Source: Megasphaera elsdenii DSM 20460 (GTDB lineage: Bacteria > Bacillota > Negativicutes > Veillonellales > Megasphaeraceae). From it: DNA of 32,000 nucleotides. Below, piece after piece: positions 3,347 to 32,000 of this stretch. The notes beneath the pieces were generated by a model that saw nothing but the letters and a program-made list of their open reading frames with translations, searched no databases and was not told the DNA's origin. A program made the translations under genes and the position numbers. The stretch is from assembly GCF_003010495.1 (NCBI RefSeq), contig NZ_CP027570.1, positions 1,260,001 through 1,292,000 on the forward strand, given 5' to 3'. The stretch's first letter is position 1. Every line of letters begins with the position of its first letter.

Positions 3347-3600
3347 AATAAAAAAACTCCCGTCCACAAGGGACGGAAGTTTATATCCGCGGTACCACCC
3401 AATATTCCTCACCAAAAAAGCAAGGCACTTTTCAACGTACTATCATACGCGTTTCCTGTAACGTGGATCAGACGGTGCAGTTTACTCATTTCAACTGCAA
3501 TTCTCAGAGATGATTTTCCATTTTCCTTCCACCACCGGCTTTCACCATACCCGGCTCGCTGTGCGCTTCCGCAAAAATGTACTCTTTCTCGTCATCGAAT
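3347..3600 (-). promoter_or_regulatory. T-box riboswitch leader (candidate specifier AUC, Ile) controlling the MFS transporter
   Basis: Minus strand features: K-turn GATGAC...TGAGA; specifier-loop 5' side AAGAGTA; distal AGCGAGCCGG...GGTGAAAGCCGG; T-box sequence AATATTGGGTGGTACCGCGG (3385-3407); terminator ACTTCCGTCC-loop-GGACGGGAGT followed by a T-run (3349-3380). Confidence 0.85.
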
Positions 3601-3637
3601 GTCAAAATATAAAATCGATGTTTAACTTACGGTCCTT

Positions 3638-4037: not shown

Positions 4038-4388
4038 TGGTGGAGATGAGGAGAGTCGAACTCCTGTCCGTAAATGCCGCCCCATGAACTTCTCCGAGCG
4101 CAGACCTTGTTAGGATCTTAAACCGTTTTCGTACAAGGACAAACTAGACGATTCCAGCCTGTGAGTTTCCCGACACGACTACCAGGCAGAGCCATGTGGT
4201 ATCCCGCTAAGTGACGTCTGCGAGCTGCCCGCAGGATTAGCAGCAGGAGACGTTAGCCGCACTTAGGCAGCTAAAGCAAAATTGTTTTCTTTTGCGTTTA
4301 ATTTAAAAGGTTCACCGATTTACGGGCAGATGAAACCCCGGCTCGCTATTCATGATACAACCATCCACGTCGAAACCTTTACATCCCC
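4038..4388 (-). ncRNA. ssrA: tmRNA (transfer-messenger RNA)
   Basis: Minus strand starts GGGGATGTAAAGGTTTCGACG and ends GGAGTTCGACTCTCCTCATCTCCACCA. The tag reading frame GCA AAA GAA AAC AAT TTT GCT TTA GCT GCC TAA (4263-4295) encodes AKENNFALAA. Confidence 0.95.
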
Positions 4389-4627: not shown

Positions 4628-5392
4628 TTGTTATTATATATCATTAAATGGCTTTATGCCTGGATCCTGCCGATGGGTGGCATTGTCCTGGCTTTGATTC
4701 TCTTATTGTATTATATGTTTCGCAGACACAGTCCCGGCCGCTGGGCGCTGGCTGTCGTTACGGCTGTCTTTTATCTTTTGTCCATCGAGCCCGTATCGAA
4801 CGGCCTCATCCATCCCTTGGAAACGGCTTATGACCAGCCGCAGGGGACGGCTGTCGCTGGCGATGTCATCGTCCTCCTCGGCGGCGGATCCCGGGCCGGC
4901 GTCCCCGATTTCGACGGTACCGGCCAGGTCGGCAGCGCCGCAGCCAACCGTTTCCTCATGGCCCTGCGCCTGCAAAAGGCTAAGGATCTGCCCATCCTCT
5001 TATCGGGCGGGACCATCCTCGAAGGCGACGCCAATGAATCGGAAATCGAAAAGCGGATGCTCCTCTCCCTGGGCGTGCCGGAAAATAAGATCTTCATGGA
5101 CGACAAGAGCCGCAACACGGCAGAAAATGCCGCTTTTTCCAAGCAAATCTGCGAGCACCAGGGCTGGACGAAGCCCATCCTGGTCACCAGTGCCTTCCAC
5201 ATGCCCCGGTCTGTCCGCTTCTTTACGCGTGAAGGCCTCGATGTGACGCCGTATCCCTGTGATTACCATACGAGCGCTGTGACGAACTGGTCCGGGTACT
5301 CCGTCGTACCCCAGTCTTTTTACTTATTTAACTCCTGTCTGGCCATCAAAGAATACGTCGGCATCGCCGCCGCTTCTTTGCGGATACAATAA
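4628..5392 (+). CDS. YdcF/ElyC-family protein (DUF218 domain) with N-terminal TM helices
   Basis: Motifs VIVLLGGG, ILLSGG, SRNTAENA, ILVTSAFHMPRS. The start is uncertain: TTG 4628 follows GAAAGGA (4610-4616). The ORF-track start at 4535 would translate repeat modules. Confidence 0.7.
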   Translation: MLLYIIKWLYAWILPMGGIVLALILLLYYMFRRHSPGRWALAVVTAVFYLLSIEPVSNGLIHPLETAYDQPQGTAVAGDVIVLLGGGSRAGVPDFDGTGQVGSAAANRFLMALRLQKAKDLPILLSGGTILEGDANESEIEKRMLLSLGVPENKIFMDDKSRNTAENAAFSKQICEHQGWTKPILVTSAFHMPRSVRFFTREGLDVTPYPCDYHTSAVTNWSGYSVVPQSFYLFNSCLAIKEYVGIAAASLRIQ

Positions 5393-5490
5393 ATTGGGAC
5401 ATAAAACGTCCATGGTATTGCAAAATCGTACCCGATGTGGCATACTTACAGTGTAAGTAGTAAGGCCCTCAGGTTCTTAGAATTATGTAA

Positions 5491-6555
<1,065 letters not shown>

Positions 6556-6616
6556 TTTGTAGCGACGCATTTCCCAACGGGTAAACAGCCTCCCGTTACA
6601 AATCAGATTGAACCCT

Positions 6617-6647
6617 AAAGGGGCCGTCGCATGGCGGCCCCTTTTTA
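6617..6647 (+). terminator. Intrinsic terminator after gap
   Basis: GGGGCCG-tcgcatg-CGGCCCC followed by TTTTT. Confidence 0.65.
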
Positions 6648-6682
6648 TTACTCATCGATTACAAAAGGAGTCAAAAACTGTA

Positions 6683-8206
6683 ATGACGAAAAAGAAACCT
6701 GTAATGCTGGTCATCATGGATGGTTTTGGCTGCAGCCATATCGAAAAAGATAACGCCGTAGCCCAGGCAGACCTCAAGGTCTTGCCGAAACTTTGGAAAG
6801 AATATCCTCATTCGTATCTCGGCGCATCGGGCGAAGACGTCGGTCTGCCTGACGGCCAGATTGGCAACTCTGAAGTGGGCCATCTTAATATCGGTGCGGG
6901 ACGTATTGTGTACCAGGCGCTGACAAAAATCACCAAGGACATCAAAGACGGCGCTTTCTTCCAGAAACCGGCTCTCGTCGGTGCTATGGAAAACGTCAAG
7001 GAAAAGGATTCGGCCCTCCATCTGCTGGGCCTCGTCTCTCCTGGCGGCGTCCACAGCAGCGAACAGCATCTCTATGGTCTTTTGGAAATGGCCAAGCGCA
7101 ATGGCTTGAAAAAAGTCTACATCCACGCCTTCCTCGACGGCCGCGACGTACTGCCCCGCAGCGCTGGCGAATACCTCAAGGAACTGGAAGATAAGTGCGT
7201 TGAACTCGGCGTCGGCGAAATCGCTACCATCAGCGGCCGTTATTATGCCATGGACCGCGATAAACGCTGGGAACGCGTTGAAAAGGCTTATGATGCCGTC
7301 GCCCTCGGTGAAGGACCGCAGGAACCGGATGCTCAGACCTGCCTGGAACATTCCTATGCGGCTGACATTTCCGACGAATTCGTCATTCCCACTGTCATCC
7401 ATAAACATCCCGTCCAGGATGGCGACAGTGTCATCTTCTTCAACTTCCGCCCTGACCGGGCCCGCCAGTTGACGACGGCTTTCGTCGTTCCCGATTTCGA
7501 CGGCTTCCCGCGTCCGAAGAAGCTGGATACGTACTTTGCGACCATGACCCGTTATGAAGATGACCTTCCGGTACACGTCGTCTACGATAAGGAACGGATT
7601 CCGGATACCTTAGGCGAAGTCCTGGCTAAGGCCGGCAAGACGCAGCTGCGCATTGCCGAAACGGAAAAATACGCTCACGTCACGTATTTCTTCAATGGCG
7701 GCGAAGAAGAACCGAATCCCGGTGAAGACCGCATCCTCGTACCGTCGCCGAAAGTTGCGACGTATGACTTGCAGCCGGAAATGAACGCGCCCATTGTCAC
7801 GGAAAAAGTCATCGAACAGATCAAGGCCGATAAATATGATATGATCATGCTCAATTTCGCCAACGCCGATATGGTCGGCCATACAGGCGTCTTTGAAGCG
7901 GCTGTCAAAGCTGTCGAAACGGTCGACACCTGCGTCGGCAAAATCGTTGAAGCCTTGAAACCCGTCCAGGGCCAGCTCCTGATCATCGCCGACCATGGCA
8001 ATGCGGAACAGATGGCCGATCCCGATACGGGCTGCCCTTACACGGCTCATACGACGAACCATGTACCGTGCATCCTGGTCAGTGAAGAACATAAAGGGGA
8101 TCACCTGCACGACGGCATCCTGGCCGACGTCGCCCCGACCATGCTGACTTTGGCCGGTATGGACATTCCTGCCGATATGACCGGCAAATGCCTGCTGGAC
8201 CAGTGA
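6683..8206 (+). CDS. gpmI: 2,3-bisphosphoglycerate-independent phosphoglycerate mutase
   Basis: MTKKKPVMLVIMDGFG, NSEVGHLNIGAGR, ADHGNAE. AAAGGAG (6664-6670) precedes ATG 6683; the track start at 6608 is an upstream extension. Confidence 0.93.
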   Translation: MTKKKPVMLVIMDGFGCSHIEKDNAVAQADLKVLPKLWKEYPHSYLGASGEDVGLPDGQIGNSEVGHLNIGAGRIVYQALTKITKDIKDGAFFQKPALVGAMENVKEKDSALHLLGLVSPGGVHSSEQHLYGLLEMAKRNGLKKVYIHAFLDGRDVLPRSAGEYLKELEDKCVELGVGEIATISGRYYAMDRDKRWERVEKAYDAVALGEGPQEPDAQTCLEHSYAADISDEFVIPTVIHKHPVQDGDSVIFFNFRPDRARQLTTAFVVPDFDGFPRPKKLDTYFATMTRYEDDLPVHVVYDKERIPDTLGEVLAKAGKTQLRIAETEKYAHVTYFFNGGEEEPNPGEDRILVPSPKVATYDLQPEMNAPIVTEKVIEQIKADKYDMIMLNFANADMVGHTGVFEAAVKAVETVDTCVGKIVEALKPVQGQLLIIADHGNAEQMADPDTGCPYTAHTTNHVPCILVSEEHKGDHLHDGILADVAPTMLTLAGMDIPADMTGKCLLDQ

Positions 8207-8249
8207 TTATACTCTGTTGTTCTATCGCATCGTGAAGGGAGAGAGTAAG

Positions 8250-9272
8250 ATGGAACAAGATACATTGAGTATCTTTCAAAAAATAGCTCCCGATGTCATG
8301 GGGACAATCAAAGAACGCTATCTGCTGCTGCGGCATATCGCCGACGCCGAGCCCGTCGGCCGGCGGACCCTGGCAGGTCTTTCGGGCCTGTCGGAACGCG
8401 TCGTCCGGTCTCACGTCGACGTCTTGCGGCGCAGTGGCATCGTGCGCTTTACGACGCTGGGCATTGCCATGGAACCGGAAGGCAAACGGCTCATGCCGGA
8501 TCTCCTGGAGTGTTTCCTGCGCCTGAATAATTTGGACGACATGCAGCGCCAGATCCGCCAGAAGCTGGGCCTGAAAAATGTCTATATCGTCCCCGGTGAC
8601 AGCGATAACGATAAGACCGCCAAGGAAGAACTGGGCCGCCGGGGTGCGCTGCTCCTGAACGACCTTTTCGGCAGCGTAGATACGGTCGCTATCAGCGGCG
8701 GGTCGACGATGGCTGAAGTGGCCCGCATGCTTCCGGAATGTCTGGCCAACGTGACTATCTTGCCGGCCCGCGGAAGCATGGGCAACCATGTCGAAGTCCA
8801 GGCCAACTACATCGCCGCCAACATTGCGGCCAAGACCCACAGTTCGTACCGCATGATCCATATCCCGGAAGGCCTCAGTGATTCGGCGCTGCAGATGATG
8901 CTCCAAGCCGACCGCCAGACCCAGGAAAATGTGGCCATGACGGCCCGGGCCCAGGTCGTCATCTTCGGCATCGGCCGGGCGGACCGCATGGCCCGCAAGC
9001 GGGGCATGACGACGCTCCAGCGCGATGCCCTGCACAGCCTCGGCGCCTGTGGCGAATCGCTGGGCTGCTATTGCGGCCTCGATGGCAAGATTTTATATGG
9101 TACGAATAATGTAGGGATTTCATTGCGAGAAATCAAATTTCATCCGCACGTCATCGCCGTAGCCGGTGGCGCCAGCAAGGCCGAAGCCATTGTAGGCGTC
9201 ATGCGGGCCTGCCATACGGGTACGCTGGTCACGGACGAAGGCGCGGCTGAAAAAATCATACAAATGCTTTAA
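8250..9272 (+). CDS. cggR: SorC/CggR-family sugar-binding transcriptional regulator (central glycolytic genes regulator-like)
   Basis: N-terminal wHTH (RTLAGLSGLSERVVRSHVDVLRRSGIV) plus a SorC sugar-binding domain. Its position in the glycolytic cluster fits. GGGAGAGAG precedes ATG 8250. Confidence 0.8.
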   Translation: MEQDTLSIFQKIAPDVMGTIKERYLLLRHIADAEPVGRRTLAGLSGLSERVVRSHVDVLRRSGIVRFTTLGIAMEPEGKRLMPDLLECFLRLNNLDDMQRQIRQKLGLKNVYIVPGDSDNDKTAKEELGRRGALLLNDLFGSVDTVAISGGSTMAEVARMLPECLANVTILPARGSMGNHVEVQANYIAANIAAKTHSSYRMIHIPEGLSDSALQMMLQADRQTQENVAMTARAQVVIFGIGRADRMARKRGMTTLQRDALHSLGACGESLGCYCGLDGKILYGTNNVGISLREIKFHPHVIAVAGGASKAEAIVGVMRACHTGTLVTDEGAAEKIIQML

Positions 9273-9290
9273 TTGGAGGAGGAACCTTTC

Positions 9291-10472
9291 ATGAAAAAAA
9301 CGATTACTGATGTAAATGTCGAAAACAAACGCGTTTTTGTCCGCGCTGACTTCAACGTCCCCCTTGATGAAAACTGCAACATTACAGACGATACGCGTAT
9401 CCAGAAGACGCTGCCGACCATTAAATACTTGCTCGACCATAAAGCAGCCGTCATCCTGGCCAGCCATCTCGGCCGCCCGAAGGGACAGGTCGTCGAAAAG
9501 TATTCGTTGAAACCCGTTGCCAAACGCTTGTCGGAACTCCTCGGCCTTGATGTCAAATTCGCTCCGGATTGCGTCGGTGCAGAAACGAAAGCCATGGCTG
9601 ACGCCCTCAAACCGGGTGAAGTCCTGCTCCTGGAAAATCTCCGTTTCCATAAAGAAGAAGAAAAAAACGGCGAAGATTTCGCCCGCCAGCTCGCTTCTCT
9701 GGCTGAAGTCGGCATCAACGACGCTTTCGGCTGCTGCCACCGCGCTCATGCTTCGGTCGCAGGCATTACGAAATTCCTGCCCATGGCAGCCGGCTTCCTG
9801 CTGGAAAAAGAAATCCGCTTCATCGGCGGGGCTGTCGACAACCCGGCTCATCCTTTCGCAGCCATCATCGGCGGGGCTAAAGTTTCCGACAAGATCGAAG
9901 TCATTTCCAACCTCCTGCCTAAAGTCGACCTCATGATCATCGGCGGCGGCATGGCCAATACCTTCCTGGCTGCCCAGGGCTATGGCATCGGCAAATCCCT
10001 GGTCGAAGCCGACAAAATCGATTTGGCCAAACAGCTCATCAACCAGGCTAAAGAACAGGGAACGAAACTGCTCCTGCCGGTTGATGTCACGGTCGCTGCT
10101 GAATTTAAGAACGACGCCGACCACAAAGTCGTTTCCGTCGATGCTGTCCCGGCTGACTGGATGATCCTCGACGTCGGCACGAAGACGCAGGAACTCTTCG
10201 CTAAAGAACTGGCCCCGATGAAACTCATCGTCTGGAACGGGCCGATGGGCGTATTTGAAATGGAAAACTATGCTAAAGGCACAGAAGCTGTCGCTAAAGC
10301 TGTCGCTGATTCCGAAGCTGTTTCCATCGTCGGCGGCGGTGACTCCGTTTCGGCTGTCAACAAGACCGGCCTGGCCGACAAGATCAGCCACATCTCCACG
10401 GGCGGCGGTGCTTCCCTGGAATATCTCGAAGGCAAACAGCTCCCGGGTGTCGTATCCCTGAGCGATAAATAA
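9291..10472 (+). CDS. pgk: Phosphoglycerate kinase
   Basis: [40 protein letters not shown] precedes ATG 9291. Confidence 0.95.
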
Positions 10473-10501
10473 TCATTCACCTTTAAAGGAGGAAACTCAT
10501 T

Positions 10502-11312
<811 letters not shown>

Positions 11313-17522: not shown

Positions 17523-18296
17523 ATGGGGGCAAAAGCCGTGATCATCGATCACGAACCGCTAATGGCGGCGCAGTTGAAGAAGCTGTTACAGCGTGGGGAT
17601 CCGTCTATCGAGGTAAAATCAATATGTTATGAAGGGGAACAAGCCATGGCTTGTCTGGCGGCTCATCAGCCGGATATCGTCTTTCTGACGCTGGAAATGC
17701 CGCGGGTCAGCGGCATGACCATTGCCAGACAGATTGAAGCGGCCAAGGGCCCTCATCCAGCCGTCGTCTTCGTCACGGGCAAGCGCGATTTTATTTCCCA
17801 AGCGCTGCGGCTCAATGTCCTCGATTATCTGGTCAAACCGGTTACAGAGGAGGAAGTGCGGCGGGTCGTCGAGAAATTCCGCGCTGTCTATATAAAAAAA
17901 GAAGCTCCTTTGCAGGAAGGAGCTTCCGAAACAGCTGTTGACAGCAGCCGACCCAGTTATGCCCGGCGTTTTTCCGTCGATGAAGGCGACAAGATCAAAC
18001 TCATTTCGACGGAAGATATCCGCCTGGTCTATGCAGAGAAACGAAAAGTTTTTCTCGTTACCTTGTCGGGCAAGACGTATCCCAGCCATCTCAGTCTGGT
18101 CCAGTTTGAAAAGCGTCTGCCTGAAGAGGTGTTCTTTCGCTGTCACCGCAATTATATCGTCAACATCGATGAGGTTCAGCAAATCGAACCGTGGTTCAAT
18201 CATCAATACGTCCTCATCGTCAAAGGGATGGAAGACCAGCCCGTGCCCATCGGCCGGTCGTATGTCAAGAAACTCCGGCAGTACGTCGACTTATAG
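17523..18296 (+). CDS. LytTR-family response regulator with degenerate (non-phosphorylatable) receiver domain
   Basis: Receiver fold plus LytTR domain (FFRCHRNYIVNIDEV). The acceptor position reads DIVFLTLEMP where DIxFLDxxMP is expected, and the acidic pair reads IIDHEP where IIDDEP is expected. Confidence 0.85.
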   Translation: MGAKAVIIDHEPLMAAQLKKLLQRGDPSIEVKSICYEGEQAMACLAAHQPDIVFLTLEMPRVSGMTIARQIEAAKGPHPAVVFVTGKRDFISQALRLNVLDYLVKPVTEEEVRRVVEKFRAVYIKKEAPLQEGASETAVDSSRPSYARRFSVDEGDKIKLISTEDIRLVYAEKRKVFLVTLSGKTYPSHLSLVQFEKRLPEEVFFRCHRNYIVNIDEVQQIEPWFNHQYVLIVKGMEDQPVPIGRSYVKKLRQYVDL

Positions 18297-20387
18297 ACTC
18301 AGGGCAGACTCGAAATAGGTCTTGAGGATCCGCTGCAGGTGGCAGCGGATTTTTTCTGGGTCGTGCCCGAGGATGGCCTGGTAAAAAGCGTCATCGCTGA
18401 CTAGGGAACTGCTGATGAAACCCAGCACGTCCGTATGGACCTGGCGATATTCGTCTTCGGGCATGATGAGCAGCAGGACAGTGGCAATGCCTTTGAAATA
18501 GTCGTCCTCAAAGGCTGGGCCGTCGGGGACGCACGTATAGAATAAGGATTGACGGATGGTTTGGGTACGGCAATGAAGCAAAGCAAAGCCCTGGTCTGGG
18601 AAAATCTGGCTGTTCAAGCATTCGCGGCGGATGATGGCGTCGAATAAGAGGGCCGTATCCTCTTCGCCTTTCGTTGCGGCTGCGGCCAGCGTATGGACGA
18701 CTTGGGCAAAGGTAGACGAGGCGGGGACGGTGAATTGCTGATAGTGACGCAGAAGACCGGCCATTTCCCGGGCCAGGAGATGTGTCCGGTCCAGGGCGGA
18801 TAAAAAAGTTTCTCCTGAAGGCGTGACCAGGTCCGGCGCTTTGCGGATGTGGGAATATGTATCAATTTTACCCAGGATATGTTGAAGTTCCGAACCCGTG
18901 ATAAGGGGGGATGTACGCAGGACGTCGGCTCCAGGAATCTGCAGGGGCAGGGTGCTGATGAAGAAATCTGTCTCTTGCAACACCGATTCTGTCAAGCCGT
19001 CCTTGCCATATGTATGGAGCTCGACATAGCTGGGCAGTTTGTTTTGAAGACGGGTCATCATCAGGCGGGCCAGGCCGAAACCGCTGGCGCAGACGATGCC
19101 GATGATGACTTTGCGGGTAAAGACTTTCTTGCCTTTGAGGCGCTCCAGGGCTGCGCCGAAATGGATAGTCAAATAGCCTATTTCTTCTTCGGAAACCGTT
19201 GTATCCAAGGCCTCTGCCAAGATGGTGGCAGCGCGGCGGGATTTTTGGAAAACCGAGGCATATTCCTGTCTGATATCGTCCAGCAGGGGATTGATGATAT
19301 TCAGATGGTGTTTCAAGCGCACGATAGTCGGCTGTAAATGGACGAACAGGCCGCGGATGAATTCATCATCACAGCGCAAATCATAGGCATACTGCGGGTC
19401 GAAGGCTTCAATCATCTTATCGATGATGACGAGAAGGGCTGGTTCGTCCAGTCCGCCCGGACCCTGCCATGGACTGCCGTTATAGCGGATTTTGGCGCCC
19501 TTGATGTGCAGGAGCAGATAAGATATTTCGATGGATGGCATGGGCAGCTGAAATTCCTCTTCCATGCCTTTCAAGATGCGTCGTGCCAAGGTACTGTCTT
19601 CATCATCCGGGATGGCTGGCGGGACAGCAGGTTCTTCCTGCAATTGTCCGCTGGCCACGCGTTCGATGGCGATGGCAATATGGATGACCAGACCGATTTT
19701 GGCGGCATCTGTGAAGTGGGCGATTTTTTCTTCGTGAAGTTTCTGGAGAACCGTATAGACTCGCTGAATCGTATGGCTGTTGAGCAATTTATAGATGCCT
19801 TTATCCGTCACATTCATGACGGCCTTGGTCAAGGCTTCCTGGCCATCATGGAGGTCTTTGAAATCTTCGGCAGACGTCGTTTCGCTGATGAAGCGGCGCA
19901 TGGCTTCGCGGTAGTCTTTTTCACTGCCCGTAAGGACGACGCCGTAGCCTTGCTTCTTCAAAACGGATAAATTATTTTTTTGCAGCCATGGGGCCAGTGC
20001 TTCCAGGTCTGAAGCAGCTGTGGCTTCACTGACACCGAGGAGCTGGCTGTAATAGAAGAGTTTCTTCGGTGTCCGGTCGCGCAGGATTTCAAAGAGCAAG
20101 TAACGGCGGCGATTCTGCTTATCGGTAAAGTCCATAGCCGATGCCGTTTGCAGGGAAGCGGCCAGTCGTTCTTTTTCTTTCTCAGGCCCGATGAGCATGA
20201 GGCCGGCCTTTTTCTTGCGCTGTAATTGCAGGCCATAAGAAGCCAGTGCGCCTGTTGTCCCGTCGAGTTCACGCTGGACCGTCCGCTTGCTGATACCCAG
20301 GTCATCGGCCAGGGTTTGCTCCGATACAAAGTCCGTTTCCGATAGCAGGCGCTGTAAAATCTGTTGCATACGAGGTGTAAAATCCAT
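18291..20387 (-). CDS. mtlR: MtlR/BglG-family PRD-containing transcriptional activator (HTH-PRD-PRD-EIIB-like-EIIA-like)
   Basis: N-terminal HTH (LADDLGISKRTVQREL), PRD histidines (VIHIAIAIER, LFVHLQPTIVRL), EIIB-like GIVCASGFG, EIIA-like GFALLHCRT. GGAGGTG lies 6 nt before ATG 20387. Confidence 0.85.
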   Translation of the reverse strand: MDFTPRMQQILQRLLSETDFVSEQTLADDLGISKRTVQRELDGTTGALASYGLQLQRKKKAGLMLIGPEKEKERLAASLQTASAMDFTDKQNRRRYLLFEILRDRTPKKLFYYSQLLGVSEATAASDLEALAPWLQKNNLSVLKKQGYGVVLTGSEKDYREAMRRFISETTSAEDFKDLHDGQEALTKAVMNVTDKGIYKLLNSHTIQRVYTVLQKLHEEKIAHFTDAAKIGLVIHIAIAIERVASGQLQEEPAVPPAIPDDEDSTLARRILKGMEEEFQLPMPSIEISYLLLHIKGAKIRYNGSPWQGPGGLDEPALLVIIDKMIEAFDPQYAYDLRCDDEFIRGLFVHLQPTIVRLKHHLNIINPLLDDIRQEYASVFQKSRRAATILAEALDTTVSEEEIGYLTIHFGAALERLKGKKVFTRKVIIGIVCASGFGLARLMMTRLQNKLPSYVELHTYGKDGLTESVLQETDFFISTLPLQIPGADVLRTSPLITGSELQHILGKIDTYSHIRKAPDLVTPSGETFLSALDRTHLLAREMAGLLRHYQQFTVPASSTFAQVVHTLAAAATKGEEDTALLFDAIIRRECLNSQIFPDQGFALLHCRTQTIRQSLFYTCVPDGPAFEDDYFKGIATVLLLIMPEDEYRQVHTDVLGFISSSLVSDDAFYQAILGHDPEKIRCHLQRILKTYFESALSL

Positions 20388-20434
20388 GCTATCACCTCCG
20401 TCATCCATGGTATTCCTGTATGTCTTTGCTTTAC

Positions 20435-24821: not shown

Positions 24822-26426
24822 GTGCTTAGAGTATTGAATATCCGCACGGCTGTCCCTATGCAGAAGCCTTTGGCAGCTTTAGTGGCTAAAAAGCTTCGAT
24901 GCAGCCGCAGCGATATTTCCGGCCTTACCATTGTCCGCCGGTCCATTGATGCCCGGCGGAAGCCGCGGATTTATTTCGTCTTCACTGTCGACGTTTCTTT
25001 TGCCGACGAAGACCGGGTGTGGAAACGCTGCCGGGATAATAAGGATGTCCGTCGTCTGACCGAGACGCCAGCGCCGGAAATCCATCCCGGTACACAGCCG
25101 ATGGCGCACCGGCCTATCGTCATCGGGACCGGCCCATCCGGCCTGGCAGCTGCCTTGGCCCTGGCGGAACACGGCTACGCGCCTATCGTCTTTGAACGGG
25201 GCTGCGATGTCGATACCCGGACGAAAGATGTAGAAACTTTTTGGCGTGGCGGTCCTTTCAAGGCCTCGTCGAATGTCCAGTTCGGCGAAGGTGGGGCCGG
25301 GACCTTTTCGGATGGCAAATTGACGACCCGCGTCAATCATCCGCTGCTGCGGCGCATCTTGCAGACTTTTGTCGATGCCGGCGCACCGGAGGATATCCTG
25401 TATGCCTATAATCCCCATGTCGGGACCGATGTCCTGCGCCGCGTAGTCAAGAATATGCGTCATACCATCGAAGCCCGGGGCGGGGAAGTCCATTTTTCCA
25501 GCTGCGTCACGGCCATCCATCGCGACGATGAAGGCCGCATTACTTCTGTGACCGTCAATGACAGCGATGAATATCCGGCCGAGCTGGTCGTCATGGGTAT
25601 CGGCCATAGTGCCCGCGATACGTATTACATGCTCCACGACCAGGGCGTTACCCTGGAAAAGAAGCCCTTTGCCGTCGGCGTGCGTATCGAACATTCCCAG
25701 GATGTCATCGACCGGGCCCAGTATGGCTGCCCGGCAGCAGATCTCGGCCTGGAACCGGCGGACTACGCCTTGGTCTACCACAGTCCGGAAGGGCGGTCGT
25801 GCTATTCTTTCTGCATGTGTCCCGGTGGCGTCGTCGTCGGGGCGGCTTCGGAAGAAGGGCGGGTCGTCACCAACGGCATGAGCCTGTACCGGCGCGACAG
25901 CGGTATCGCCAACAGTGCTGTCGTCGTCAATGTCACGGCTGATGACATGGGCGGGGATAGTCCCCTGGCAGGTATCGAGTTCCAGCGCCGATATGAAGAA
26001 CTGGCGTATAAAGCGGGCGGCAGCTGTTATTATGCTCCGGCTCAGACCGTCGGCTCTTTCTTGAAACGGCCTGGGGCACCTCAGGAAGGACCAGTTCATT
26101 CCTATCGTCCCGGCGTGACCTGGACGGACCTGCATGACGTCCTGCCCGGCTTCGTCACGACGACCTTGGAACAGGCCCTGCCTTATTTCGGACGGCGGAT
26201 CCATGGTTTTGACGATGATGCCGTAGTCATGACCGGCGTCGAAACCCGGACCAGTGCGCCTGTACGCATCGTCCGCGGCGAAGACCGCATGGCCCTGGGG
26301 GCGGCTGGCCTCTATCCCATTGGCGAAGGGGCCGGGTATGCCGGTGGCATTATGAGTGCTTTTTTGGATGGCCTGGAAACGGCGATTGAAATCATCCGTA
26401 AATATCAACCTTTGGAGGTAAAGTAA
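24822..26426 (+). CDS. FAD/NAD-dependent oxidoreductase-like protein (COG2509 family)
   Basis: GTG 24822 after GGAAGGGAG. IVIGTGPSGLAAAL dinucleotide fold, FGEGGAGTFSDGKL, GEGAGYAGGI near the C-terminus. Confidence 0.8.
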   Translation: MLRVLNIRTAVPMQKPLAALVAKKLRCSRSDISGLTIVRRSIDARRKPRIYFVFTVDVSFADEDRVWKRCRDNKDVRRLTETPAPEIHPGTQPMAHRPIVIGTGPSGLAAALALAEHGYAPIVFERGCDVDTRTKDVETFWRGGPFKASSNVQFGEGGAGTFSDGKLTTRVNHPLLRRILQTFVDAGAPEDILYAYNPHVGTDVLRRVVKNMRHTIEARGGEVHFSSCVTAIHRDDEGRITSVTVNDSDEYPAELVVMGIGHSARDTYYMLHDQGVTLEKKPFAVGVRIEHSQDVIDRAQYGCPAADLGLEPADYALVYHSPEGRSCYSFCMCPGGVVVGAASEEGRVVTNGMSLYRRDSGIANSAVVVNVTADDMGGDSPLAGIEFQRRYEELAYKAGGSCYYAPAQTVGSFLKRPGAPQEGPVHSYRPGVTWTDLHDVLPGFVTTTLEQALPYFGRRIHGFDDDAVVMTGVETRTSAPVRIVRGEDRMALGAAGLYPIGEGAGYAGGIMSAFLDGLETAIEIIRKYQPLEVK

Positions 26427-27782
26427 ATGGCTAGATTGTTTGGAACTGATGGAGTACGAGGTATTGCCAATGATTCGTTGACACCGGAATTGGCATATCA
26501 TTTGGGCAGAGCAGCTGCCTACATTTTTGGGCAGAACAAAGAACACCCGACCTTTCTCATCGGCCGGGATACCCGCCGTTCCGGCACCATGCTGGCAGAT
26601 ATCCTGGCCGCCGGTATCGCTTCAGCCGGTGGGGACTGCTACATGGTAGGCGTCATTCCGACTCCGGCCATTGCCTACCTGACGCGGACCCATCATATGG
26701 ACGCAGGCGTCATGATTTCGGCCTCGCATAATCCTTTTGAATACAACGGCATCAAGTTCTTCGATGGCTTTGGCTATAAATTGCCGGACGAAACGGAAGA
26801 TAAAATCGAAGAATGTATGCTCAAAGATGAACGGGCAGCTCTCCAGAGCCGTCCGACCGGGGCTGCTATCGGCACGATTTCGACGTGGACTGATTTACAG
26901 CAGGAATATGCTGATTTCATCTGCAAATCGACAGATATCGACTTGTCGGGCTTGAAAGTCGTCCATGACGGGGCCAATGGCTCGGCGTCAGTATTGGGAC
27001 CGGAAATCCTCAAGCGCCTCGGTGCAGAAGTCATTGCTATCCATCATGAACCGAATGGCGTCAACATCAATGAAAAATGCGGGTCCACCCATTTGGAAAG
27101 CTTGAAGGAAACGGTTCTCAAATACGGGGCTGATGTCGGCATTGCCAATGACGGTGACGCTGACCGCTGCCTGGCTGTCGACGAAAAGGGCCAGGAAATG
27201 GATGGCGACCAGATCATGCTCCTCTGCGCCATGAAACTGAAAGCCGAAGGCCGGCTCAAACAGGATACCGTCGTCGGTACGGTCATGAGCAATATCGGTT
27301 TCCATAAAGCGTTGAAAGAAATGGGCTGCAAGACGGAAATCACGGCTGTCGGCGACCGCTATGTCCTGGAAAAGATGCGTAAAGACGGCTATTCCCTGGG
27401 TGGCGAACAGTCGGGCCATATCATCTTCCTCGACTACAATACGACCGGTGACGGCCTGCTCACGGCGGTCCAGCTGCTGAGCATCATGAAACAGCAGAAT
27501 AAGCCGCTGTCGGAATTGGCCGGGCTCATGACACGCTACCCGCAGATTTTGAAAAATGTTCGCGTTCAGACGAAATCCGGCTGGGAAGACAATAACCTCA
27601 TCATGGCGGCCATTTCGGCTGGCGAAGAAGAATTGGGCGATGAAGGCCGCATCCTCGTCCGTCCGTCCGGGACAGAACCCCTCATCCGTGTCATGGCGGA
27701 AGGACCGGACCTGGACCAGCTCGAACGCATCGTCGATGACATCGCCGTCGTCGTCGAACACGAAATGGGGCCTTCCAAATAG
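26427..27782 (+). CDS. glmM: Phosphoglucosamine mutase
   Basis: MARLFGTDGVRG, phosphoserine loop SASHNP, metal loop NDGDADRC, GGEQSGH. Confidence 0.95.
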   Translation: MARLFGTDGVRGIANDSLTPELAYHLGRAAAYIFGQNKEHPTFLIGRDTRRSGTMLADILAAGIASAGGDCYMVGVIPTPAIAYLTRTHHMDAGVMISASHNPFEYNGIKFFDGFGYKLPDETEDKIEECMLKDERAALQSRPTGAAIGTISTWTDLQQEYADFICKSTDIDLSGLKVVHDGANGSASVLGPEILKRLGAEVIAIHHEPNGVNINEKCGSTHLESLKETVLKYGADVGIANDGDADRCLAVDEKGQEMDGDQIMLLCAMKLKAEGRLKQDTVVGTVMSNIGFHKALKEMGCKTEITAVGDRYVLEKMRKDGYSLGGEQSGHIIFLDYNTTGDGLLTAVQLLSIMKQQNKPLSELAGLMTRYPQILKNVRVQTKSGWEDNNLIMAAISAGEEELGDEGRILVRPSGTEPLIRVMAEGPDLDQLERIVDDIAVVVEHEMGPSK

Positions 27783-27817
27783 GTATTGACAAAACCTTGC
27801 AAATATATTAAAGTGTG

Positions 27818-27855
27818 GGAATGGAGTTCAGCGAACTTCATTCCTGCTTTTTTTT
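27818..27855 (+). terminator. Intrinsic terminator after glmM
   Basis: GGAATGGAGTT-cagcg-AACTTCATTCC, then tgc and T8. Confidence 0.7.
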
Positions 27856-27888
27856 GCAGGCGTCTGGAAATCCTTGACGATATAATGG

Positions 27889-28030
27889 ATAGCGCTAGTG
27901 CCTGGTCCGCCAGGCAGACGAGGTAGAGAAGTATCGAACAGTCAGCGGATGTCTCTCGGCAGCTTCAGCCGTTATATGACGGAAAAACACGGCGGTAACG
28001 TCGTCGACAAGTTCGTCATGGGAAGGAACA
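27889..28030 (+). promoter_or_regulatory. glmS ribozyme (GlcN6P-dependent self-cleaving leader)
   Basis: A|GCGCTAGTGCCTGGTCCGCCAGGCAGACGAGGTAGAGAAGTATCGAACAGTCAGCGGATGTCTCTCGG matches the conserved glmS core (AGCGCC..., GACGAGG, AUCGAA, GCGGAUG). The predicted cleavage site is between 27891 and 27892. Confidence 0.9.
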
Positions 28031-28054
28031 TTTTCATATCAGGAGGATATAACT

Positions 28055-29884
28055 ATGTGTGGTATTGTAGGTTACATCGGAGACAGAGAAGCAGCAGATT
28101 TTTTGATGGATGGTCTGGCAAAGCTGGAATACCGCGGTTATGATTCGGCCGGTATCGCCGTCTATCATGACGGCGCCATTGCTGTCCGCAAAAAGGCAGG
28201 CCGTCTGGTCAACCTGGCTGAAGCCGTAAAGGCTCATCCTGTCGTCGGCACGGTCGGCATCGGCCATACCCGTTGGGCAACTCATGGCGGTCCGTCGGAT
28301 GTCAACGCCCATCCCCATACGGATGAAAAAGGCGATTTCGCCATCGTCCACAACGGCATCATCGAAAACTACATGGAATTGAAGGAAGAACTCCTCAAGA
28401 AAGGGTATCACTTCAAGTCGGAAACGGATACGGAAGTCGTCGCCCACTTGTGCGCCGACATGTACGACGGGGATTTCACCAGCACGGTCCGCAAAGTCCT
28501 GAGCCGTCTGCGCGGTTCTTATTCGTTGGTCTTCATGTGCAAATTTGAACCGGATAAGATCATTTGCAGCAAGAAGGATAATCCTCTCATCGTCGGTCTC
28601 GGCCAGGGCGAAAACTACATCGCCTCGGATATCCCGGCCATCCTTAGCTATACCCGCAAGACGTATATCATGAATGATGGAGAAATCGCCATCGTCATGA
28701 AAGATAATGTCTGGGTCACGGACCTCGAAGGCAAACCCATTTCCAAGAAAGTCTTTGAAGTCAACTGGGATGCCGAAGCGGCTGAAAAAGGCGGCTTCGA
28801 ACACTTCATGCTCAAGGAAATCTATGAACAGCCGAAGGCCATCAAAGATACCATGAGCTGCCGCATCACGAAAGACGGCAAACATGTCCACTTCGAAGAA
28901 CTGAACTGGACGCCGGAAGATGTCAACTCTATCGGCAAGATCCTGATCACGGCTTGCGGTACGGCCTACCATGCCGGGCTCCTGGCCAAGTACTTCATTG
29001 AAAAACTGGCCCGCATCCCTGTCGAAGTCGATATCGCTTCGGAATACCGTTATCGCGATCCTTTGACGGACAGCAAGACCCTTTGCATCGTCGTCAGCCA
29101 GTCTGGTGAAACCATCGACACCTTGGCAGCCCTGAAGGAAGCCAAACGCCGTGGCGCCCGTTCCCTGGCCATTACCAACGTCGTCGGCTCGTCCATTTCC
29201 CGTGAAGCCGACCAGGTCGCTTATACCTGGGCTGGCCCGGAAATCGCCGTCGCTTCGACCAAAGCCTATACGACACAGCTGGTCACGCTCCTGCTCCTGT
29301 CTCTGTACATGGGCCGCTTGAACGGGAATTTGTCGGTTGAACGGGAAGAAAAGATTTTAGCCGATTTGACGAAACTGCCGGATCAGTGCCAGGGTGTTTT
29401 CGACCAGGTCGATACGATCAAAGGCCTCTGCGATGCCTTCAAGAATAAAGAAGACGTCTTCTTCATCGGCCGTTCCATGGACTACGGCCTGGCTATGGAA
29501 GGGGCCTTGAAACTGAAGGAAATCTCCTATATTCATGCAGAATCCTATGCCGGCGGTGAATTGAAACACGGCACCTTGTCGCTGATCGAAGCCGGTGTCC
29601 CGGTCATCGCTTTGGCTACGCAGGTAGAAGTCGAAGAAAAGATGATCAGCAACATCAAGGAAGTCAAAGCCCGTGATGCCTATGTCGTCGGCGTCGTCCA
29701 GGAAGGCGATACGGAAGTCGGCAAGACTGTCGATGCCTTGATCAAGGTCCCGGCATCGGACGATTTCGTCATTCCCATCCTGGCCATCATCCCCTTGCAG
29801 CTGCTGGCCTACTACATCGCCGTCAGCCGCGGCAACGACGTAGATAAACCGCGTAACCTGGCCAAAAGCGTTACCGTAGAATAA
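28055..29884 (+). CDS. glmS: Glutamine--fructose-6-phosphate aminotransferase
   Basis: Ntn start MCGIVGY, two SIS domains, C-terminal KPRNLAKSVTVE. AGGAGG at 28041-28046. Confidence 0.97.
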   Translation: MCGIVGYIGDREAADFLMDGLAKLEYRGYDSAGIAVYHDGAIAVRKKAGRLVNLAEAVKAHPVVGTVGIGHTRWATHGGPSDVNAHPHTDEKGDFAIVHNGIIENYMELKEELLKKGYHFKSETDTEVVAHLCADMYDGDFTSTVRKVLSRLRGSYSLVFMCKFEPDKIICSKKDNPLIVGLGQGENYIASDIPAILSYTRKTYIMNDGEIAIVMKDNVWVTDLEGKPISKKVFEVNWDAEAAEKGGFEHFMLKEIYEQPKAIKDTMSCRITKDGKHVHFEELNWTPEDVNSIGKILITACGTAYHAGLLAKYFIEKLARIPVEVDIASEYRYRDPLTDSKTLCIVVSQSGETIDTLAALKEAKRRGARSLAITNVVGSSISREADQVAYTWAGPEIAVASTKAYTTQLVTLLLLSLYMGRLNGNLSVEREEKILADLTKLPDQCQGVFDQVDTIKGLCDAFKNKEDVFFIGRSMDYGLAMEGALKLKEISYIHAESYAGGELKHGTLSLIEAGVPVIALATQVEVEEKMISNIKEVKARDAYVVGVVQEGDTEVGKTVDALIKVPASDDFVIPILAIIPLQLLAYYIAVSRGNDVDKPRNLAKSVTVE

Positions 29885-29891
29885 TCGTTAG

Positions 29892-29977
29892 TTTGAGGTT
29901 TGATGTATGATGTTTGAGGTGATGGCCTTTAAATTTTGTCCCATCCACATCAAACATCAAACTTTCAACTTCAAACT
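29892..29977. repeat. Module C copy 2: TTTGAKG heptads, 45-nt core, CAAAC-type heptads (imperfect long hairpin)
   Basis: tttgagg tttgatg tatgatg tttgagg tgatggc, a loop, then ccatccacatcaaacatcaaactttcaacttcaaact. The core 29911-29955 is 42/45 identical to 3931-3975. Confidence 0.8.
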
Positions 29978-30014
29978 AAAAAAGCGCTGTCTTCATGCGA
30001 CAGCGCTTTTTTTT
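29978..30014 (+). terminator. Intrinsic terminator after glmS
   Basis: aaaaaAGCGCTGTC-ttcatgc-GACAGCGCT followed by T8. Confidence 0.8.
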
Positions 30015-30148
30015 GTCCCCTTTATTCTCCGTTCGGCAGGGGAATCGTCCCTTTCGTCCGGGAAAAGGCGCGGCCTTCTTCTTTTTGCCGTATACTATAC
30101 TCAACGAAATGACAGTGATGATTGCAGATAGATGTGAGGTGTTGTCTT

Positions 30149-32000
30149 ATGTCACGCTTTATCAATAACCTGAAACGCCGCGTTGCCAAAGAGCAGAAGA
30201 AGATTGTCCTGCCGGAATCGGAAAGCCGCCGCGTCCTGCAGGCTGCCGAACGGGTCCAGGCCGAAGGTTTCGCCCGGCCTATCCTCATCGGCCGGCCCCA
30301 GAGTATCGTCGAAGTAGCGTCAGAATATCAAATCGATATGGATGGTATCGAAATCATCGATCCCGAAACATATCCCATGATGGATAAATTCTGTGAATAT
30401 TATGCTAAGCGGCGGGCCAAGAAGGGCATGACTCTTGAAGAAGCACGGAAAGTCTTGTCGGAAAATTATATTTTCTTTGCTGCCTGTCTCGTCGCCTTCG
30501 ATATTGCCGACGGCATGGTCGCCGGGGCTGTCGCTACATCGTCGGAAGTCATCCGGGCGGCCCTGCAGGTCATCGGGCCCCACCCCGGCTTGTCGACGGT
30601 CAGCAGTTCCTTTATCATGATTACGGATAAACCGCAATTCGGCGATGATGGCATCTTCGTCGTCGGGGACTGCAGTGTCGTCATCGAACCGACGCCGCAG
30701 CAGTTGGCCGATATCGCCGTCAGCTGTGTCGAACGGGCCCGCCGGACGGCGCAGATGCTCGATCCGAAAGTAGCCCTCTTGTCGTATTCGACCATGGGAA
30801 GCGGTGCCGGCGAAGAAGTCGACCGCGTCCGCGAGGCCGTCCGCCTGCTGCGGGACCGCAACGTTGATTTCGAATTTGATGGGGAAATGCAGGCCGACGC
30901 TGCCCTGGTGCCTCGTATTGCCCGGCAGAAAGCACCGGGATCGACGGTAGCCGGGCAGGCCAATGTCCTCGTTTTCCCGAATCTCGTTTCCGGCAATATC
31001 TGCTATAAAGTCTTGGAACATCTGGCCGGAGCGACGGCGCTGGGCCCGCTCCTCCAGGGCCTGGCCAAGCCGGTCATGGATTTATCCCGGGGCTGTACGC
31101 CTGAAGATATTACCGACGTCATCGCCATTTGCTGCAGCGATGCCATCTATATGCAGGCCGAAAAGAAACGCGATATCGCCTTTACCAGCCGCTTTGAAAA
31201 GCTCGACCGCCGAGTCGCCGTCGAAAACCGCAATATTTCCATCCAGTTCGATCCGGAAAAGTGCAAGAACTGTACCCTTTGCCGTCGGCGCTGTGCCGAT
31301 GTCATGTCCATGACGGGCTATTATTCTCTGGAAAGTACGGGTGACGTGCCGATTTGCGTCCACTGCGGCCAATGTTCCCTGACGTGCATGTTCGGTGCGA
31401 CGACGACTGTATCCCAGCGCGATGCCATCCAAAAGGCCATCGATGACCCGAAGAAAATCGTCATCTTCCAGACGGCACCGGCTGTCCGCGTCGCTCTTGG
31501 CGATGAATTTGGCCTGCCCTTCGGCTCCGTCGTCCAGGGCAAGATGATTGCCGCTCTGCGGGCTCTCGGCGGGGATTACGTCTTCGATACGAACTTCGGC
31601 GCTGACCTGACCATCATGGAAGAAGCATCGGAACTCCTGTACCGCATGCACAATAAGAAAGAACTCCTGCCGCAGTTCACCAGCTGCTGCCCGTCGTGGG
31701 TTGAATTTACGGAAATCTTTTTCCCTGAACTGATTCCTCACTTGTCGACGGCCAAGAGCCCGATCAGCATGCTCAGTCCTATGATCAAGACCTATTTTGC
31801 CAAACGCATGAAGATCGATCCGGCCGACATCGTGACGGTCTGCGTCACGCCGTGTACGTCGAAGAAAGCCGAAATTGCCCGGCCGGAACGGAATGCTGCC
31901 GGCCGCTATTGGAAGAAGCCGGAAATCCGCGATACGGACTACTGCATTACGACTCGTGAATTGGCGAAATGGATCAAAGACGCCCAAATCGACTTCAACA
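30149..32000 (+). CDS. Phosphate acetyltransferase fused in frame to a 2x[4Fe-4S] + [FeFe]-hydrogenase H-domain module; 3' end outside window
   Basis: GAGG (30136-30139) precedes ATG 30149. I translated every codon to base 32000 and found no stop. Pta motifs ADGMVAGAV, LLSYSTMGSG, FDGEMQADAALVP, GLAKPVMDLSRGC are followed by CKNCTLCRRRC, CVHCGQCSLTC, FTSCCPSW and TPCTSKKAE. Confidence 0.8.
   Translation, partial: MSRFINNLKRRVAKEQKKIVLPESESRRVLQAAERVQAEGFARPILIGRPQSIVEVASEYQIDMDGIEIIDPETYPMMDKFCEYYAKRRAKKGMTLEEARKVLSENYIFFAACLVAFDIADGMVAGAVATSSEVIRAALQVIGPHPGLSTVSSSFIMITDKPQFGDDGIFVVGDCSVVIEPTPQQLADIAVSCVERARRTAQMLDPKVALLSYSTMGSGAGEEVDRVREAVRLLRDRNVDFEFDGEMQADAALVPRIARQKAPGSTVAGQANVLVFPNLVSGNICYKVLEHLAGATALGPLLQGLAKPVMDLSRGCTPEDITDVIAICCSDAIYMQAEKKRDIAFTSRFEKLDRRVAVENRNISIQFDPEKCKNCTLCRRRCADVMSMTGYYSLESTGDVPICVHCGQCSLTCMFGATTTVSQRDAIQKAIDDPKKIVIFQTAPAVRVALGDEFGLPFGSVVQGKMIAALRALGGDYVFDTNFGADLTIMEEASELLYRMHNKKELLPQFTSCCPSWVEFTEIFFPELIPHLSTAKSPISMLSPMIKTYFAKRMKIDPADIVTVCVTPCTSKKAEIARPERNAAGRYWKKPEIRDTDYCITTRELAKWIKDAQIDFN

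Follow-up and report, generated by a model that had tools for sequence, protein, structure and literature searches.

A Gene Predicted to Encode a Phosphotransacetylase–[FeFe]-Hydrogenase Fusion Protein in Megasphaera

The pta::hydA Reading Frame

The stretch of DNA analyzed here (the window) is 32,000 nucleotides of Megasphaera elsdenii DSM 20460 (RefSeq assembly GCF_003010495.1, contig NZ_CP027570.1, positions 1,260,001–1,292,000 of the forward strand). At its 3' end lies an open reading frame (ORF), pta::hydA (30149..32000, +), which joins a phosphotransacetylase (Pta) to an [FeFe]-hydrogenase (HydA). The window contains the first 617 of its 814 codons, and the ORF continues past the window end. 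Translation of 30149–32000 (+) gives 617 sense codons and no stop. The probability of such a stop-free run by base composition alone is ~1e-12. An earlier note on this DNA had described the frame as stop-free and as missing from the ORF track, and both statements hold. The program that lists the ORFs omits those running off the source, and the antisense shadows at 30320–31021 and 31082–31987 are listed instead.

Pfam places PTA_PTB at aa 4–328 of the window protein (E = 6e-113) and Fe_hyd_lg_C at aa 436–617 (E = 3e-63, cut by the window end), with weak Fer4 matches between the two. In NCBIfam, the window protein scores over the cut-off of the pta equivalog and also matches [FeFe] group A models. 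The full-length protein is represented by the database protein P0001, which is 814 aa long, 99.5% identical to the window protein, and contains PF01515, PF02906, and PF02256. Its modules are Pta (aa 1–334), a 10-residue connector, and HydA, which consists of two [4Fe-4S] motifs, the H-domain, and a small-subunit (SSU)-like tail. The stop codon and the third H-cluster motif (L3), EVMACPGGCIGGGGQP, which the earlier note had proposed to look for downstream, are past the window end and are seen in P0001 and in locus L001. The proposal that a complete short-type Pta is joined to an [FeFe]-hydrogenase in one polypeptide is supported by Pfam, TIGR00651, and TIGR02512. Judged from the sequence, this is a genuine gene conserved in Megasphaera, of which the window covers the 5' three-quarters; its predicted product is ~90 kDa. 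That this is a real gene of bifunctional architecture is almost certain.

The Phosphotransacetylase Half

The Pta module is of class I and corresponds to aa 1–334 (30149..31150, +), based on Pfam PTA_PTB, TIGR00651, and the PDB matches. Class-I phosphotransacetylases interconvert acetyl-coenzyme A (acetyl-CoA) plus inorganic phosphate and acetyl-phosphate plus CoA. For the pta equivalog TIGR00651 (cut-off 311.2 bits), the window fragment scores 347.1 bits and P0001 344 bits. For NF007233 (cut-off 310), the scores are 363 and 361 bits. The nearest solved structures are true Ptas, 6iow (3e-83) and 1qzt (4e-74); the PTA-like domains of MaeB match at 1e-45.

The catalytic loop, DLSRGCTPED, is at 31079..31108 (+). 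Its Ser313, Arg314, and Asp320 correspond to Ser309, Arg310, and Asp316 of the Pta of Methanosarcina thermophila. In the residue alignment with 1QZT, R87, R133, S309, R310, and D316 correspond to R89, R136, S313, R314, and D320 of the window protein, and all five are kept. In the M. thermophila numbering, Ser309-Arg310 and Asp316 are taken here to be catalytic, and Arg87 and Arg133 to bind CoA. The Ptas of M. thermophila (1QZT/2AF3) and Porphyromonas gingivalis (6IOW) align with the window Pta over the full length and share these catalytic and CoA-binding residues. Unlike in those proteins, the C-terminal helix of the window Pta has no stop and runs via the connector into the hydrogenase.

MaeB, a malic enzyme with a PTA-like domain (6ZNG, 8JZO), is likewise a PTA_PTB fold fused to an unrelated enzyme of central metabolism. 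The PTA-like domain of MaeB is C-terminal and is regarded as regulatory. By analogy with this non-catalytic domain, the Pta module of the fusion might sense acetyl-CoA, CoA, or acetyl-phosphate, or serve as a scaffold, and so tune the hydrogenase or dock it to pyruvate:ferredoxin oxidoreductase (PFOR). PTA_PTB serves as an allosteric acetyl-CoA-binding module in MaeB, and 6zng and 8jzo are among the PDB matches of the window protein. Besides, the key Pta positions drift in some fusion lineages (S309P/T, D316G/N/E, R133H/Q/K), and the protein is retained there. In the window protein, however, the PTA domain is N-terminal, keeps all five key residues, is far closer to true Pta than to MaeB, and passes the pta equivalog cut-off; with the MaeB model NF009501 it reaches 170 bits against a cut-off of 1178. 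A regulatory fusion of the MaeB type is considered unlikely.

A second, stand-alone PTA_PTB gene (pta2) encoding 336–339 aa is located ~180 nt 3' of the fusion stop (L001, 2871–3890). It is also seen in L007, L010, L012, L016, L089, and L099. The pta2 product shares 59% identity with the fused Pta, groups in the tree as sister to the clade of fused Ptas, and has DLSRAS in place of DLSRGC. Its TIGR00651 score is 277 bits, under the cut-off of 311, compared with 344 for the fused Pta. Because pta2 falls below the equivalog cut-off, the fused copy is the more canonical Pta.

The Hydrogenase Half

The F-domain (aa 372–413; 31262..31387, +) contains two CX2CX2CX3C motifs for two accessory [4Fe-4S] clusters, at 31262–31294 and 31355–31387. 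All eight F-cluster cysteines are present in the window protein. Seven of the eight positions are invariant in 19 fusion proteins, and the eighth is Ser in P0004 alone. The H-domain (Fe_hyd_lg_C; 31454..32000, +) is represented by its N-terminal ~70%, with the motifs L1, FTSCCPSW (31676–31699), and L2, TPCTSKKAE (31847–31873). The SSU-like tail (PF02256) follows with L3 beyond the window end, in P0001. The positions of these motifs, and of DLSRGC at 31079–31096, were all given correctly in the earlier note.

The nearest solved relatives of the HydA half are Desulfovibrio HydAB (9gbu, 1e-111) and CpI (4xdc, 1e-99). P0001 scores 468.4 bits with TIGR02512, for which the cut-off is 405.95; the window fragment scores only 315 bits because it is truncated. 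In CpI numbering, the H-cluster cysteines C300, C355, C499, and C503 are invariant in the 19 fusions. The proton pathway of the window protein is intact (C299, E279, E282, R286, and S319), and K358 is also present.

C299 is important in proton transfer (PMC8163306). In the M2e/M2f hydrogenases of groups C and D, which are putative sensory hydrogenases, C299 and the proton pathway are lost, and a C-terminal Cx2Cx4Cx16C motif is present, with or without PAS (PMC8163306). In contrast, the HydA of the window protein keeps C299 and the full pathway, has the SSU-like tail, and contains no extra Cys motif. The HydA half is predicted to be a complete, ferredoxin-dependent [FeFe]-hydrogenase of the M2 type and group A.

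Thr567 (31847–31849) is found at the position of CpI Met353 (TPC for MPC). Ser or Thr at this position is typical of M2e/group D, and Met353 has been discussed as tuning the catalytic bias (PMC8163306). All fusions have this Thr. It was considered as a peculiarity of the fusion and this was rejected, as the stand-alone Megasphaera HydA has the same Thr. The stand-alone, monomeric M2 HydA of the M. elsdenii type (P0101) is found in the same genomes and is 60–65% identical to the fused HydA, with the same module order and the same L1, L2, and L3. Compared with P0101, the window protein has an additional, complete Pta of ~335 aa, joined at HydA residue 4.

Megasphaera makes active HydA, and the maturases HydE, HydF, and HydG are expected in the genus. 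Their genes are not in the window or in the retrieved loci. Both activities, Pta and hydrogenase, are likely to be retained in the window allele.

The Junction

The connector, MQAEKKRDIA (aa 335–344; 31151..31180, +), was delimited by comparison with the split pta-hydA pairs of L088 and L090. It stands in place of the C-terminal tail of Pta, the stop codon, the spacer, and the HydA start of the unfused pairs. It is followed by the native N-terminal lead of HydA, FTSRFEKLDRRVAVENRNISIQFDPEK (aa 345–371; 31181..31261, +), which is homologous to residues 4–30 of the stand-alone or adjacent-type Megasphaera HydA. The junction reads ...CCSDAIY-MQAEKKRDIA-FTSRFEKLDRRVAVEN..., and the N-terminus of the stand-alone P0101 reads MSVFRSRFKELQRRVPIDEH.... 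The sequence after the connector, FTSRFEKLDRRVAVE..., corresponds to MSVFRSRFKELQRRV... of P0101 and MSDFESRFKELNRRV... of the split pair L090. Since this is the native HydA N-terminus from residue 4, the connector comprises only ~10 residues. The frame continues past Pta into HydA as claimed earlier, but of the linker described then only these residues are new and the remainder is the native HydA head. A long novel linker is therefore rejected.

The only in-frame starts near the junction are ATG 31151 (Met335) and ATG 31304. The statement of the earlier note that no start codon and no Shine-Dalgarno (SD) sequence occur between 31151 and 31304 is right inside these bounds, but the two ATGs are located exactly at them. 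Met335 precedes the first cluster, and initiation of HydA alone is possible there in principle, which refines the further claim of the note that HydA with its first cluster cannot be started separately. This raises the alternative that one ORF yields two proteins, either by a HydA start at Met335 or by proteolysis at the connector, and that the fusion is only a translational or transcriptional coupling. In favor of this, the connector opens with an in-frame ATG (31151) and is predicted to be flexible, and the annotation of one metagenome-assembled genome (MAG) begins the hydrogenase at Met335 (P0023). On the other hand, no SD-like sequence is seen 5' of ATG 31151 (GCTGCAGCGATGCCATCTAT), the clear SD of the unfused pairs, AGGGGTGA, is lost in the fusion, and the position of Met335 varies among the fusion proteins (M/L/I/R/Q). 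Initiation at Met335 is unlikely in view of the missing SD and the variable Met. The two-protein alternative as a whole is highly improbable.

The AlphaFold2 (AF2) model based on a 76-sequence alignment has a mean predicted local distance difference test score (pLDDT) of 89, with both modules confidently folded, a pLDDT below 50 at aa 342–350, and a predicted template modeling score of 0.60. Only 19 fused sequences are in the alignment, which limits what can be said about the tether, and the model gives no reliable inter-domain geometry. An earlier run with the 19 fused sequences alone had a mean pLDDT of 65 and was unusable. This suggests that each module folds on its own and that a flexible tether joins them. 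The lack of a confident interface in the model argues against the regulatory fusion considered above.

Conservation among Relatives

The junction alignment, which consists of the Pta tail and the HydA head, was scanned against one genome per GTDB species, and the best 80 of 168 relatives were kept. The whole junction is matched by 29 loci from 24 species-level genomes. All 29 are in one open frame, and none is split. The genomes with the fusion include those of M. intestinihominis, 'M. elsdenii' MSK.21.52, Megasphaera sp. WILCCON 0056, Megasphaera sp. MJR8396C, M. massiliensis NP3, and M. cerevisiae DSM 20462, a complete chromosome of M. sueciensis, and many MAGs. Two or three fused copies are present in some genomes, and in L027 two are arranged in a head-to-tail tandem. 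Among the relatives kept, stand-alone HydA only is matched in M. hominis, M. paucivorans, Megasphaera sp. AM44-1BH, Anaeroglobus, and Veillonella.

The window at 25100–32000 shows ~90.6% DNA identity to the nearest species-representative genomes (L005–L008), and the fusion protein is 98.7–99.5% identical. The species of the window itself seems not to be among the species representatives returned. The fusion protein differs from its closest relatives at 4–8 of 617 residues, with a synonymous divergence (dS) of ~0.5 and a nonsynonymous divergence (dN) of ~0.004. Against the five closest relatives (dS 0.4–0.7), dN/dS is 0.003–0.015 for Pta, 0–0.03 for the junction, and 0.002–0.006 for HydA. Against more distant species it is ≤0.1. 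A range of 0.005–0.06, with dS 0.4–0.6, is also given for the three parts against the closest relatives, and 0–0.06 for aa 331–370. The junction, too, is under strong purifying selection. The Pta half is under constraint as strong as the HydA half, which is a further point against a merely regulatory Pta.

It was considered whether a miscalled base or a chimera hides a stop at the junction, or whether the gene is a decaying remnant. Frameshifted or chimeric versions do exist in some metagenome assemblies. In L099 (1534–3974) and L100 (1514–3952), a fusion of the M. massiliensis type (P0021) is frameshifted by the loss of one A from an A5 run. This loss is common to two independent run assemblies, and L100 has two further 1-nt deletions. 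These frameshifts are either real pseudogenization or homopolymer sequencing errors. L089 (2968–4389; P0030, also P0029 and P0038) encodes a stand-alone HydA of 473 aa with a breakpoint near 3249. The stand-alone hydA locus (L032) is matched by the 5' part and by the ABC-F gene upstream of it, and the fused locus by the 3' 1.1 kb and the pta2 gene downstream. It is either a recombinant of paralogues or a chimera of metagenome assembly.

For the window, however, an artefact or a pseudogene has a negligible probability and was rejected. The same frame and the same junction are seen in 29 of 29 loci, including isolates and a finished chromosome, and the junction protein is perfectly or nearly conserved despite a dS of ~0.5. 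The 4–8 changes in 617 residues and the low dN/dS despite ~90.6% DNA identity rule out a hidden stop or gene decay. The miscalled base that the earlier note had wished to see checked is excluded by the same observations, and its scenario of a lone exception among relatives with two separate genes does not apply, since isolates and a complete chromosome carry the same in-frame fusion.

Many contigs, among them L005–L008 and L083–L085, end ~50–250 bp 3' of the fusion gene. This suggests that a repeat (pta2 or another element) breaks the assemblies there.

Distribution and Annotation

Tabulation of domain architectures, proposed as a check in the earlier note, finds PF01515, PF02906, and PF02256 together in ~20 protein clusters at 90% identity. 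These proteins are 808–873 aa long and 61–100% identical to the query. The architecture is confined to a single cluster at 50% identity, and every named source is Megasphaera. The cluster of P0001 contains 1563 member sequences and is common in metagenomes. Of 1.84 billion cluster representatives searched exhaustively with phmmer, exactly one, P0002, matched end to end; the other matches cover HydA or Pta alone. Long, N-terminally extended matches were examined as candidates for Pta-HydA fusions elsewhere and were rejected, as they carry NuoF/NuoG/Fer2 or rubrerythrin and not PTA_PTB. In P0121, a database protein of 4122 aa, seven tandem [FeFe]-hydrogenase H-domains occur together with FAD-binding and flavodoxin domains; the gene model is probably of a eukaryote type or concatenated.

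In the databases, each of the names given to the fusion gene covers only one half: 'phosphate acetyltransferase', '[FeFe] hydrogenase, group A', or 'NADP-reducing hydrogenase subunit HndD' (P0005, P0011, P0016, P0001, and P0023). In L010 (4909–7473), the coding sequence in the NCBI MAG annotation is 482 aa from an internal Met (P0023), though the frame is open through Pta. Metabolic reconstructions based on such names therefore miss one of the two activities.

The earlier note knew of no described Pta-hydrogenase fusion. No description was found in the full-text literature either, where many subscription papers are outside the coverage and absence is not proof; the protein itself is already in public databases under the names above. 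Other [FeFe]-hydrogenases are likewise extended by an extra module on the same chain, as in the HydA-rubrerythrin (P0122) and NuoF/NuoG-type (P0237) proteins, and archaeal HydA-HyhS hybrids are further fusions (PMC11216029). Rubrerythrin, NuoF/NuoG, and HyhS all serve redox reactions or electron transfer, whereas Pta transfers acyl groups, is not a redox enzyme, and has no cofactor for exchanging electrons. The fusion is a new domain-architecture variant made from two well-known enzymes, not a new kind of system.

Origin of the Fusion

L088, L090, and the M. sueciensis-type loci L097 and L098 hold unfused pta-hydA pairs. They consist of a Pta of 343–354 aa, a gap of 31–60 nt, which is 31 nt in L088 and L090, and a HydA of 485 aa. 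The SD of the unfused hydA lies in this spacer, and its protein starts with MSDFESRFKELNRRV.... The pairs are flanked by lytS-lytTR upstream and by rseC-rnfCDGEAB-apbE downstream. The two genes are the same and in the same order as in the fusion, the HydA is sister to the fused clade, and its N-terminus is homologous to the post-connector sequence. The fusion differs in being one polypeptide, in lacking a separate SD and ATG for hydA, and in its chromosomal location. Organisms of the M. sueciensis type hold both the unfused pair and a fused paralogue.

In the bootstrapped neighbor-joining tree of HydA, the fused modules form one clade (100/100). The fused and adjacent HydA together are separated from the other stand-alone HydA of Megasphaera, Anaeroglobus, and Veillonella (99/100). 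One junction peptide is common to all fusions. The shared junction peptide and the HydA tree indicate a single origin. The Pta-half tree has no clean single clade of fused proteins: most fused Ptas form a clade sister to pta2, and the Pta of the M. sueciensis type, with an insertion of ~50 aa, branches apart from the other fused Pta halves. These M. sueciensis-type fusions (P0017–P0019; L024 4867–6027, L086) are 865–873 aa long, with the ~50-residue insertion within Pta. Their neighborhood is also different, with a WG-repeat protein upstream and radical SAM and DUF4130 proteins downstream.

The simplest history suggested by these sequences would be a pta-hydA operon, its duplication, and one in-frame fusion. 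The fusion would arise from the pta-hydA pair by the loss of the pta tail, the stop codon, the spacer, and the hydA start. A second fusion event, or gene conversion in the Pta half, may also have played a part.

Genomic Context

The order of genes 5' of the fusion is cdaA, ybbR, a gene for an FAD protein, glmM, the glmS ribozyme, and glmS. The synteny from cdaA through glmS to the fusion is also seen in the relatives L083 and L092. The glmS ORF (28055–29884) is followed by its intrinsic terminator (29978..30014, +), with the stem AGCGCTGTC/GACAGCGCT and then T8. The RNA fold of this hairpin is −20.2 kcal/mol, with z = −6.0 versus shuffles. A Shine-Dalgarno-like GAGGTG (30136..30141, +), read from the sequence, lies 7 nt before ATG 30149. 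The terminator and this GAGGTG indicate that the fusion gene is its own transcription unit. It would have a transcript of its own, 3' of the glmS terminator, with ATG 30149 as the translation start. A sigma-70 consensus scan of 29885–30148 gave no convincing promoter, and Rfam gave no known leader or riboswitch 5' of the fusion gene.

Elsewhere in the window, the glmS ribozyme (27880–28029, +) is upstream of glmS. A tmRNA gene is at 4038–4388 (−), and a T-box leader (3366–3604, −) is upstream of an MFS transporter gene (1962–3299, −). The glycolytic cluster gpmI-cggR-pgk-tpiA occupies 6608–11263 (+). A PRD/Mga/EIIA-type regulator (18291–20408, −) and a LytTR response regulator (17523–18296, +) are also present.

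Function of the Fusion Protein

PFOR would make acetyl-CoA and reduced ferredoxin together. The fusion would put the consumers of both products on one chain, regenerating CoA and oxidized ferredoxin. Pta and HydA would thereby be made in a 1:1 ratio and kept at the same place. Of the readings considered, a bifunctional enzyme for both PFOR products is the most likely one and is judged moderately likely on the basis of the sequence, and the physiological rationale taken separately, the handling of the PFOR products, has about an even chance of being right. The idea of functional tethering was put forward in the earlier note. It is plausible and is supported by the independent pta-hydA-rnf neighborhood, but it stays an inference.

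In chain elongators including Megasphaera, acetyl-CoA goes either to reverse beta-oxidation or to the PTA-ACK route, which yields acetate and ATP (bioRxiv 10.1101/2025.05.02.651941). Reverse beta-oxidation consumes reducing equivalents, and the PTA-ACK route requires electrons to leave as H2. With the fusion, the acetate/ATP branch (Pta, then Ack) would always be matched by H2 disposal, not by chain elongation or propionate. Pta and HydA share no substrate, so the coupling would be stoichiometric and spatial and not chemical channeling. Known Pta enzymes are homodimeric in solved structures, and the hydrogenase should therefore become dimeric in the fusion as well.

Several observations weigh against the bifunctional enzyme. 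The two reactions have no common intermediate, and the benefit of fusing them is not obvious. The genomes with the fusion also hold stand-alone HydA and Pta, so the fusion is an extra copy and not the only route. The ~90-kDa product and both activities are predictions, and the AF2 model, informed by only 19 fused sequences, has no defined inter-domain interface. Key residues also vary in other lineages. Pta S309P is seen in several MAG lineages. The syntenic orthologues of the M. massiliensis group (L012, L013, and L015, from M. massiliensis NP3, UBA1696, and MJR8396C, and L014) have Pta D316G and have replaced the proton-relay Cys, with TSACPSW (C299A), or TSSCPSW in L014. Some other fusion lineages have A, S, or V in place of C299. 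In the tandem of L027, HydA is intact and Pta has S309P in copy 1 (5023–7464), and copy 2 (7480–9909) combines HydA C299V with an intact Pta. This variation indicates that the family does not everywhere depend on both halves being catalytically active. The changes of the L027 and M. massiliensis types look like reciprocal loss, subfunctionalization, or a move toward sensor-like hydrogenases.

One lineage has even deleted the HydA module and kept Pta (P0022, 353 aa; L092 6001–7062, L093, and L094). At the same site after glmS, Pta is retained and ends in nine residues left over from the HydA head (FTSRFDKTE*), beyond which the DNA is AT-rich and non-coding. P0022 is a natural Pta-only derivative of the fusion. 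The intact Pta of this lineage suggests that Pta is valuable alone, which does not favor the regulatory fusion.

A related speculation is that the Pta module gates or positions the hydrogenase, either through the binding of acetyl-CoA, CoA, or acetyl-phosphate or through docking of the Pta dimer to PFOR. This is rather doubtful. If it were true, H2 release would be slaved to the acetate/ATP flux, and the protein would be a carbon-flux-controlled hydrogenase or part of a three-enzyme metabolon from pyruvate to acetyl-phosphate and H2. The tandem copies with S309P and C299V and the type with D316G and C299A would then be steps to sensor-like or single-activity derivatives.

To return to the bifunctional enzyme, known extensions of [FeFe]-hydrogenases are for electron transfer or sensing, and the conserved, strongly selected link to Pta is of a different kind. 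In the literature covered, it would be the first case in which a non-redox enzyme of carbon metabolism is joined to an [FeFe]-hydrogenase. For enzymology, it may offer a naturally dimerized M2 hydrogenase on a Pta scaffold. Read as a 'Rosetta stone', the fusion would tie H2 evolution in Megasphaera to the branch from acetyl-CoA to acetyl-phosphate and hence to ATP, in agreement with the independent pta-hydA-rnf neighborhood. Megasphaera are abundant lactate users in the gut and rumen and are industrial chain elongators. The split between acetate plus H2 and butyrate, caproate, or propionate sets their product spectrum, H2 cross-feeding, and energy yield, and the fusion may provide a testable handle on it.

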